Virus record (IMG/VR): IMGVR_UViG_2671180577_000001
Span: 1-7,750 of that record
DNA length: 7,750 bases
Source: a virus
Taxonomy: Duplodnaviria > Heunggongvirae > Uroviricota > Caudoviricetes
Strand: one strand, 5' to 3'
Shown here: piece by piece, positions 6,001-7,750 of the stretch
Layout of the letters: every line of letters starts with the position of its first letter
Position numbering within the stretch: position 1 is the first letter of the stretch
Position numbers: made by a program

Positions 6001-7750
6001 ATCGCGCTGTGACGATGCTAATCCCAAACCTTACCCAACCCACCTGGTCACGCACTGTTAAGCCGCTGTATGACGCTCTGGTTGTGCAATGCCACAAGGA
6101 AGAGTCAATCGCAGACAACATTTTGAATGCGATCACACGTTAGCGCCATGATTGCCACGGATGGCAACATATTAACGGCATAATATTGACTTTTTGAATA
6201 ACTTTGGGGAAACTTGACATCAATAATGGGCGTTTTTTACATGTCATTGATGAGTCTCAATAACCTGCCGCCGAGTAGTTTTTATGCTCTGAATTGTATT
6301 TGTGTAGTAAACATGCTGACTGCAATGTAATAGAGTTTTTTTAGCCTGTAACCTCTTGACGGCATTGAATTGCTTTTGTTATGAGTTGTAAGCCAATGTT
6401 ATCATCTTGTATTGGGGTGGTTATGAAGGATGGTGCGCTGCTCAGGAGTTCTTCACTTTTTATTGCCTACATGGGATGCCTTGGATGGGGGAGTGCTTAT
6501 TTCTATGGATGGGGTACTTCTTTTTACTACGGCTTCCCATGGTGGATTGTAGGTGCAGGTGTTGATGATGTTGCCAGAAGTTTATTTTTTGCAGTTATCG
6601 TCATTGCTATATTTCTTATCGGTTGGGGTATTGGTGTTGTATTCTTTTTCGCAGTGAAAAGAAAACATTCTATGCAAGAGCTAAATGTATTTCGCCTTTA
6701 TTTTGCTGTGGAATTATTGTTTGTGCCGGCAATTATTGAGTTTTCTATATTGAGACAGAAGATTCAGGTACCTCTTTTGCTACTGTCAGCAGCGATTGCG
6801 CTGGCGGTTACAATTTCGATAAGATCTTATGGGCGATTTTTATCGGTATCATGCTTCTATGATAAGCCATTTATAAAAAAACATTTTTTTGAGATTGTGA
6901 TGATTGCTTTTGTGGCATATTTCTGGCTTTTTTCATTTCTGACAGGATATTACAAACCACAGTTTAAGAAAGAATATGAAATGATTAATTATAATGATGG
7001 TTGGTATTATGTTCTTGCTCGTTATGATAATTGTCTGGTTTTGTCTACTTCTTTCAATGCAGGTAGTAAAAGGTTTGTCATTTATCAATCAGCACAAGAT
7101 AAGAATCTTCAGGTTGATATTGTAAGGACCAGAATTTAATTGGCTGCATAAATAATATTTTAAGTTGCAAGTTGGCTATTCGTAGGAATAGAACCTTAGG
7201 CATGCTGAATGCGTTTTCTGAACATTGTTTTATAAACTGTGTCTGCTTGCTGTTGTGATCCTGCTTTTAGTGATGGTGATGATGGATTTCACCAGCAGGA
7301 TAATGTTGGTACTGACTGATGGCGCTCTGGTCTGCGGCATTGTGGTATTGCTGTGGCCGATGATGAAAAAACAGAATGAATAATCCTTGACTTTTTTGTT
7401 TACTGTTTATTAAAAAATCAACCGCATGGTGAATCCTCCTTGGAGGGGCTAAATGATCGAGTTTTAAGGGCACGTAGCGAGTTCTGTTTGATCATTGCAG
7501 AACTTAGCGGGAGGCGCCATGCGTACATCACTAATGTTATTTCCTTCTATCATTTTCCTTGTGAGTTCTGGCTGCGCATGGCGCGGCCTTTTTTTTATGA
7601 CCTGCCACTGGCAGATGGCCATCCTGTAATTTGATTCCGGTTCCGGCTTTTTAACTCTGCTCCTGTACACGGGAGAAATTCGATGTCGATTAAACATTAT
7701 GATGTTGTCAGGGCGGCGTCGCCGTCAGACCTTGCGGAAAAGCTGACACA

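Follow-up and report, generated by a model that had tools for sequence, protein, structure and literature searches.

The subject of this analysis is an AT-rich gene encoding a predicted inner-membrane protein of the TfpB/STM1630 family (PF27470), found in the genome of a virus of the class Caudoviricetes (IMG/VR record IMGVR_UViG_2671180577_000001, positions 1 to 7,750). This 7,750-base stretch, referred to below as the window, is the right arm of a lambda-like prophage, and the gene lies directly 3' of the lambda-type antiterminator gene Q and the late promoter PR'. We hypothesise, giving this reading about an even chance of being right, that the gene is a self-contained mobile moron whose product serves the host as an inner-membrane envelope factor, and that it is not part of the phage lytic programme. 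A benefit to the bacterium in its own host, rather than to the phage, is suggested because members of the family are under purifying selection on virulence plasmids and chromosomes, are largely confined to animal-associated bacteria, and show virulence-linked expression in Salmonella.

The first-pass annotation, made from the sequence alone, described an open reading frame (ORF) of roughly 250 residues at 6381–7139. A + strand ORF of 252 codons does exist at exactly this position. The stop-free stretch spans 256 codons, as compared with a mean longest stretch of 78 and a maximum of 188 in 2000 shuffles, and the probability of finding 252 open codons at the composition of the ORF is 2.4e-8. The proposed start is probably not the true one. 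The coding sequence most likely begins 42 nucleotides further downstream, at ATG 6423, giving a protein of 238 residues. This start is preferred because 22 of the 30 aligned homologues are 237–238 residues long and begin at the equivalent methionine, because RefSeq annotates the equivalent start, because a G-rich stretch resembling a Shine-Dalgarno sequence precedes this methionine in all five of the Escherichia and Citrobacter alleles inspected (GGGGTGG at 6414–6420 in the window, which is one of the five), and because ATG 6381 is located within a conserved promoter-like −10 element.

The base composition is clearly different from that of the surroundings. Between 6423 and 7139 the GC content is 36.3%, and 30.5% at third codon positions (GC3), compared to a GC content of 49–53% in P, ninB, ybcO, rusA and Q. 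The suggestion that the slot between Q/PR' and the lysis genes holds AT-rich, horizontally acquired cargo is thus upheld in both composition and position; in addition, no homology to a lysis protein or to a characterised virulence gene was found. All alleles of the family have a GC content of 32–41%, irrespective of the host. The gene is under purifying selection (ratio of non-synonymous to synonymous substitution rates, dN/dS, of 0.05–0.09). Using only comparisons free of saturation, dN/dS is 0.055 and 0.086 against the alleles of E. albertii and Escherichia sp., which are 94–97% identical, and 0.068 between Salmonella enterica subspecies.

No family had been assigned to the protein in the first-pass annotation. 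Sequence comparison now places it within PF27470, which is displayed as 'TfpB' in other annotation and corresponds to the RefSeq product name 'STM1630 family protein'. PF27470 is precomputed for all 103 matches obtained in a protein search, the top one having 100% identity to the window protein, and a profile made from the family recovers the window protein. A scan of the protein against Pfam using hmmscan gave no match, the Pfam version scanned being older than the PF27470 model. The NCBIfam scan of the protein also gave no match, though the family name is the one used by RefSeq. Alignments, the structural model and column statistics together show the full-length architecture of the family, namely about 238 residues, five helices, a C-terminal β domain, and the motif A-Y..G-W-G-S-A-Y-x-Y-G-W-G..Y-Y-G-x-P-W-W.

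The family is small. A profile search of 1.84 billion proteins found 70 representatives, 21 of them with E < 1e-30. Named members come from Escherichia, Shigella, Citrobacter, Salmonella, Yersinia, Klebsiella, Enterobacter and Cronobacter, with more distant members in Neisseria and in the Pasteurellaceae (Avibacterium, Gallibacterium, Actinobacillus, Pasteurella, Haemophilus ducreyi, Glaesserella and Aggregatibacter). Nearly all are from animal-associated taxa, Mangrovibacter being an exception. It is worth adding that phrog_14371, phrog_17164 and phrog_3985, whose functions are unannotated, correspond to N-terminal or C-terminal pieces of the window protein, an indication that the phages and prophages sequenced so far often carry the gene in split or frameshifted form.

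Neither the sequence nor the family is new to the databases, both being represented by phage 434, E. coli O157:H7 Sakai, the Pfam entry and the NCBI name. Gp68 of phage 434 (CPT_434_68) is a 100% identical protein, O157:H7 genomes carry the gene at 100% nucleotide identity (ECs_0816 in the Sakai annotation, in prophage Sp3), and the identical protein is present in at least 80 IMG/VR prophage contigs. Of 5426 complete E. coli genomes, 767 (about 14%, or one in seven) carry at least 80% of the gene, and 1197 carry some member of the family. Literature searches for ECs0816 found no mention, and those for 'TfpB' returned unrelated meanings only (covalent organic framework chemistry, nerve blocks, and a PilB-like TfpB of Acinetobacter).

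In the window, as in its annotated relatives, the gene is followed by a DUF3927 gene and by the start of a nanS-p/SASA esterase gene. In lambda, only orf-64 is found between Q/PR' and S, and there is no TfpB/STM1630 gene. Phage 434B is viable with DLP12 DNA in place of about 5.5 kb, a stretch that takes in Q, the late promoter and the lysis region (PMC9119081). The GenBank phage record places the gene inside the replaced stretch, and since 434B has lost this region yet grows, the gene is dispensable for lytic growth.

These observations bear on the suggestion that the protein modulates lysis, as an antiholin or a holin-like protein, or has some other late phage function. Its location would fit, since the gene follows PR' in the late transcript, ahead of the lysis cassette, and the product is a membrane protein. 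We nevertheless regard this explanation as extremely improbable. Quite apart from the viability of 434B without the gene, the holin of the relatives is more than 2.5 kb downstream, with the DUF3927 and nanS-p genes in between. A protein of 238 residues with five helices and a β domain is unlike the holins, which have roughly 60–150 residues and 1–4 helices and adjoin the endolysin, and there is no match to a holin family in Pfam or PHROG. Homologues also persist where there are no lysis genes at all. Because the family is kept under purifying selection outside phages, a lysis role is disfavoured, and a phage-specific role of any kind mildly so.

The signals that may drive the gene are of two kinds. 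Alignment with lambda extends over the 3' end of Q and 90 bases beyond it, and the homology stops near 6230. The PR' homologue in this region has GAAACT in place of the TAAATT of lambda PR' (TTGACT-17-TAAATT). In phage 434 the gene is separated from the 82-type Q by a good intrinsic terminator (ACCCGCU-gccg-AGUGGGU followed by U8; −13.3 kcal/mol, z −3.0), and the window is homologous to phage 434 from exactly this point onward. At the site of the terminator, the window has no hairpin, and only a weak fold is found further downstream (−4.6 kcal/mol, z −0.6). A survey of 76 loci carrying the same gene, one of which has too little upstream sequence to type, found the intact terminator in 34, and in each of these Q is of the 82 type. 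Where Q is of the lambda type, the terminator site is decayed in 37 loci and is another variant in 4. Since the upstream terminator is degraded in the lambda-Q version, PR' should read into the gene.

A terminator scan found none after PR' before position 7570, as the first-pass annotation had proposed for the interval between PR' and the gene. The first convincing one, at 7570–7596, is likely to be where the transcript of the cassette ends without Q. Lambda PR' is constitutive, and if the same is true here, the two genes of the cassette in the lambda-Q version would be transcribed from PR' without Q.

The gene probably also has a promoter of its own that travels with it, a possibility raised in the first-pass annotation. 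A motif TTGACG/TTGATT-18-TATnnn, with TGn directly ahead of the TATnnn, is found 67–74 nucleotides 5' of the start codon in four contexts, these being the window, a 68% identical paralogue in prophages resembling those that carry Shiga toxin (Stx) genes, an allele on plasmids of enterotoxigenic E. coli (ETEC), and the Citrobacter rodentium copy. The upstream regions of these four copies are otherwise not alignable. A consensus promoter scan of the window flags instead TTGTTA-18-TATCAT, at 6376–6405.

Copies of the gene are also found outside phages. STM1630 of Salmonella is a chromosomal gene adjoining sseJ, and the family gene is conserved on the chromosome across Salmonella enterica subspecies and in S. 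bongori. The C. rodentium copy is at the same chromosomal site, adjoining lpxR. On ETEC plasmids, a 59% identical allele is divergent from the heat-labile toxin (LT) genes eltAB in all five of the loci inspected (L004–L008, about 5987–8714). On the Shigella invasion plasmid pINV, a 57% identical homologue is located between virA and spa40, beside the entry region, and a homologue is present on 106 Shigella plasmids. This homologue has a GC content of 32% and is without the promoter-like motif of the E. coli alleles. In Avibacterium and Neisseria the gene is a chromosomal singleton among housekeeping genes, and the copies in H. ducreyi and Aggregatibacter actinomycetemcomitans are also among housekeeping genes. 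A. actinomycetemcomitans DSM 8324 has two paralogues, at different chromosomal sites (L027 and L030). In Glaesserella parasuis the copy is convergent with, and abuts, cdtABC (L026, 5974–9017). Pfam matches confirm CdtA and CdtC; the ORF between them (cdtB) was recognised from its N-terminal sequence only. Family members are thus located directly beside AB-type toxin operons in the unrelated replicons of ETEC and G. parasuis.

Expression data have been published for STM1630. The gene clusters, or is co-regulated, with genes of the Salmonella pathogenicity island 2 (SPI-2)/PhoP type (PMC2639726), and it has a mapped promoter and is up-regulated in macrophages (10.1101/689075). In African ST313 it is down-regulated during macrophage infection, and single-nucleotide polymorphisms disrupt the −10 box of its promoter (10.1101/689075, 10.1101/450098).

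The neighbouring genes suggest an alternative, namely that the protein is a toxin accessory, with a role in release, surface display or self-protection that is tied to secreted AB-type toxins or effectors. The arrangements with eltAB, cdtABC and sseJ and beside the Shigella entry region can all be read in this way, and so can the position of the 68% paralogue, which is found between Q/methylase and nanS-p in prophages that have 933W-type late regions. Such a role is very unlikely in our judgement. No toxin gene adjoins the gene in the window, in phage 434 or in Sakai Sp3, and the copies in Avibacterium, Neisseria, H. ducreyi and A. actinomycetemcomitans are surrounded by housekeeping genes. 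Adjacency is moreover to be expected if the same hot spots receive insertions of AT-rich cargo again and again, and the neighbouring toxins use unrelated export routes.

Two further links were considered and rejected. A link to type III secretion fails because ETEC, the Pasteurellaceae and Neisseria are without it. A link to lipid A modification was rejected because lpxR or pmrD is adjacent in three arrangements and absent elsewhere. In the Stx-phage-like prophages (L010–L013, about 8001–12800) the slot that the 68% paralogue fills comes after a 933W-type Q and a DNA methylase gene; next come the lipid A modification genes lpxR and pmrD, and then nanS-p. An lpxR gene also adjoins the family member of C. 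rodentium (L009) and, in both phage 434 and Sakai Sp3, precedes Q.

The protein itself was described in the first-pass annotation as a polytopic membrane protein with about five transmembrane helices and a C-terminal soluble domain, and hydropathy and structure prediction agree on this. Hydropathy analysis identifies four strong hydrophobic segments and an N-terminal segment rich in aromatic residues and glycine. An AlphaFold2 model was built using an alignment of 37 sequences (predicted local distance difference test, pLDDT, 79.6; predicted template modelling score, pTM, 0.72). It has helices at residues 5–36, 47–78, 89–111, 116–136 and 155–181, followed by five β strands at 187–232. Across the family, loops 2 and 4 have a net charge of +2 and loops 1 and 3 of about 0. 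By the positive-inside rule, this would put the N-terminus in the cytoplasm and the five-stranded β domain, of about 55 residues, in the periplasm.

Conservation in the family is strongest in helix 1, the loop that follows and the start of helix 2. Helix 1 carries a ladder of small residues, G21-A25-G29-S33-G37, at which 81–100% of the residues are small across the wide family according to column statistics. The ladder is interleaved with aromatic residues and is followed by an F-P-W-W and a D-D-V-A-R-S motif. Small-residue ladders permit tight helix packing and are common among the helices of self-associating channels. A Foldseek comparison with the viral models of BFVD gave a best E value of 0.4, and a profile search of the sequences in the PDB found no match. 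An enzymatic role was considered and rejected, since no polar residue of catalytic type is conserved family-wide.

On the basis of these observations, the host-serving moron could work as follows. The gene would be expressed in the lysogen from the σ70-like promoter that travels with it, and the lambda-Q version would be expressed additionally by read-through from PR', past the decayed terminator and on to the one at 7570–7596. The protein would act alone in the inner membrane of the host and to the advantage of the bacterium, its most probable role being that of an envelope or host-adaptation factor in bacteria associated with animals. Its action may depend on tight helix packing, and perhaps self-association, of the hairpin formed by transmembrane helices 1 and 2 (TM1–TM2), and the periplasmic β domain may contact a component of the envelope.

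Much of this description could also apply to a protein that acts against other phages. Such a superinfection-exclusion or abortive-infection protein, made in the lysogen, might block the entry of DNA from incoming phages, or might form a pore that collapses the membrane potential on infection by means of its glycine-zipper-like first helix. In favour of this, the window product is a membrane protein encoded by a prophage, the lysogen probably makes it, the phage can do without it, and its gene is a single-gene module that moves between replicons. The TM1 ladder is of the kind seen in self-associating channel helices, and the constant partner of the gene, DUF3927, belongs to a PHROG labelled 'TciB-like inhibition of cell division or resistance to colicin' (phrog_1470). 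Even so, we consider exclusion fairly unlikely. A PADLOC scan of the protein gave no family at E ≤ 0.1, and the matching PHROG, phrog_1521, is annotated as of unknown function. Thus the activities put forward in the first-pass annotation, namely superinfection exclusion, abortive infection and lysis modulation, gained no positive support. Conservation of a chromosomal gene under purifying selection, as seen in Salmonella enterica subspecies and S. bongori, would be unusual for defence genes, which turn over fast. Defence families are also usually broad, whereas this one is very small and nearly confined to animal-associated taxa, and the slot between Q and the lysis genes in the relatives holds cargo concerned with host interaction (lpxR, pmrD, nanS-p).

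A host-serving envelope factor remains the reading we prefer, and a number of points weigh against it. The virulence-gene neighbours may merely reflect the clustering of cargo with cargo, and expression in the lysogen together with dispensability is also compatible with phage exclusion. The candidate −10 element, TATGAG, is without the usual final T. No member of the family has a described function, no structural or sequence match suggesting an activity was found, and the alignment of the wide family shows no conserved His, Asp, Ser or Cys of the catalytic type. Deletion of STM1630 caused no macrophage replication defect (10.1101/689075), and hypermotility, which was reported for an STM1630 mutant (PMC4219756), is absent from the phenotypes that were later confirmed (PMC4534456).

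A bolder version of the hypothesis, which we regard as a long shot, is that the TfpB/STM1630 proteins are an unrecognised class of self-associating glycine-zipper channels of the inner membrane, spread as single-gene cargo among animal pathogens and having a new activity. If this were true, the channel could be a gate for the release or display of the neighbouring toxins or effectors, or a phage-exclusion pore made of one protein, and the class would extend over the prophages of enterohaemorrhagic E. coli (EHEC), Shigella pINV, the LT plasmids of ETEC, Salmonella, the Pasteurellaceae and Neisseria.

Whichever explanation is correct, the gene is widespread in enteric pathogens, it is AT-rich and under purifying selection everywhere, and no solved structure resembles the model. 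Knocking it out or over-expressing it in several model pathogens would be inexpensive, and the target is clearly delimited. A comparison of the lambda-Q version, with its decayed terminator, and the 82-Q version, with its intact one, is a natural experiment on the way in which morons come under the control of the late promoter.

The DUF3927 gene is found 3' of the window-type allele in all 75 of the loci with enough sequence, and is absent beside the paralogues. Because it accompanies the window-type allele only, the TfpB/STM1630 protein does not depend on it, and for the same reason a gene partner conserved across the family was rejected. The GC3 of the DUF3927 gene is 58%, compared to 30% in the TfpB/STM1630 gene, and the two genes may have different origins. 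A literature search for DUF3927 found one passing mention. Further downstream is a + strand ORF of 36 residues (MRTSLMLFPSIIFLVSSGC...), at 7519–7629, with GGGAGG as its ribosome-binding site and SSGC as a lipobox-like sequence. The hairpin of the terminator (7570–7588) lies inside it. The ORF has no Pfam match, phage 434 and RefSeq annotate other frames here, and it may be spurious.

The features of the cassette are listed in Table 1. The remainder of the window has further genes of a lambda-like right arm. Pfam identifies replication protein P (569–1270) and NinB (2189–2599), as well as YbcO, RusA and NinH. The nin region has additional cargo compared to lambda, namely a gene for a P63C-domain protein (2763–3830, + strand, GC 43%) and a Rha/KilAC antirepressor gene (3976–4689, + strand). 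The P63C protein has a weak PADLOC match to a type I specificity subunit (E 0.004), which is probably meaningless. Two + strand ORFs are located between ren and ninB, at 1630–1836 (68 residues, strongly hydrophobic) and 1854–2186 (110 residues), and the interval that holds them has the strongest GC skew of the window. Rfam and tRNA scans of the window were empty.

Table 1 Features of the cassette and its surroundings, with two Shigella plasmid copies. Coordinates refer to the window except where another locus is named.
Feature	Coordinates	Strand	Basis and remarks
Lambda-type antiterminator Q	5520–6143	+	Pfam PF03589 Antiterm, E 1.2e-57; 3' end aligns with lambda Q
PR' homologue	6186–6214	+	−35 TTGACT 6186–6191, 17-nt spacer, −10 GAAACT 6209–6214; aligns with lambda PR'
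Degraded terminator remnant	6262–6284	+	Alignment with phage 434; intact in 82-type Q relatives (phage 434, Sakai Sp3)
Candidate own promoter	6356–6385	+	−35 TTGACG 6356–6361, 18-nt spacer ending TGt, −10 TATGAG 6380–6385; motif comparison
Coding sequence of TfpB/STM1630-family inner-membrane protein (predicted)	6423–7139	+	Most likely 238 residues, five helices and C-terminal β domain; maximal ORF from 6381
DUF3927 ('TciB-like') small membrane protein gene	7225–7383	+	52 residues, TTG start; Pfam PF13064, E 1.4e-14
First convincing intrinsic terminator after PR'	7570–7596	+	8-bp GC-rich stem followed by U8; −16.1 kcal/mol, z −2.9
Start of nanS-p-like SASA esterase gene	7684–7750	+	Continues beyond the window; relatives have 'SASA family carbohydrate esterase' or 'DUF6645/DUF1737' here
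Shigella homologue	L114 (S. flexneri pWR501) 7001–7717; L115 (S. sonnei pSS_046) 6001–6717		Annotated hypothetical

The gene can be compared with several known systems. The name TfpB recalls the TfpB of Moraxella bovis. The link to it consists of the Pfam name and of one GenBank 'protein tfpB' on a fragment of the ETEC-type allele, and is a database label only; no Moraxella sequence is among the matches of the family profile and protein searches.

A closer comparison is with STM1630 of Salmonella Typhimurium, which is 46% identical and has the same length of 238 residues, the same layout of helices and β domain, and the N-terminal GWGSAYFYGWG...PWW motif. It is likewise AT-rich (37% GC), and a single gene located by horizontally acquired virulence DNA (sseJ). 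It has its own promoter, as is probable for the window gene. STM1630 differs in being a fixed chromosomal gene rather than prophage cargo, in having no DUF3927 partner, and in that its upstream region is without the TTGACG-18-TAT motif at the conserved position.

The cassette of phage 434 containing gp68 is alike in having DUF3927 and nanS-p downstream, and the products in phage 434 and Sakai Sp3 are likewise annotated only as 'putative membrane protein' or 'membrane protein'. The difference is that in these two Q is of the 82 type and is preceded by lpxR, and an intact terminator immediately precedes the gene, whereas in the window both Q and PR' are of the lambda type and the terminator has decayed.

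Finally, the classical lambdoid morons (bor, lom, the slot of the Stx operon, and lpxR/pmrD) resemble the gene in their atypical composition, in being dispensable, in being inserted between genes that are adjacent in lambda, and in having a promoter-like element and a downstream terminator, the slot between Q and S being the same. They differ in that their products are known (outer-membrane proteins, toxins and lipid A enzymes), whereas the window product is predicted to be an inner-membrane protein and has no fold match. With respect to the features by which Hendrix and colleagues recognised morons, the gene has a foreign base composition, is inserted between genes that are adjacent in lambda, and is dispensable. 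As regards signals of its own, the promoter-like motif is conserved in position in four contexts, with an imperfect −10 element, and a strong terminator follows the two-gene cassette.

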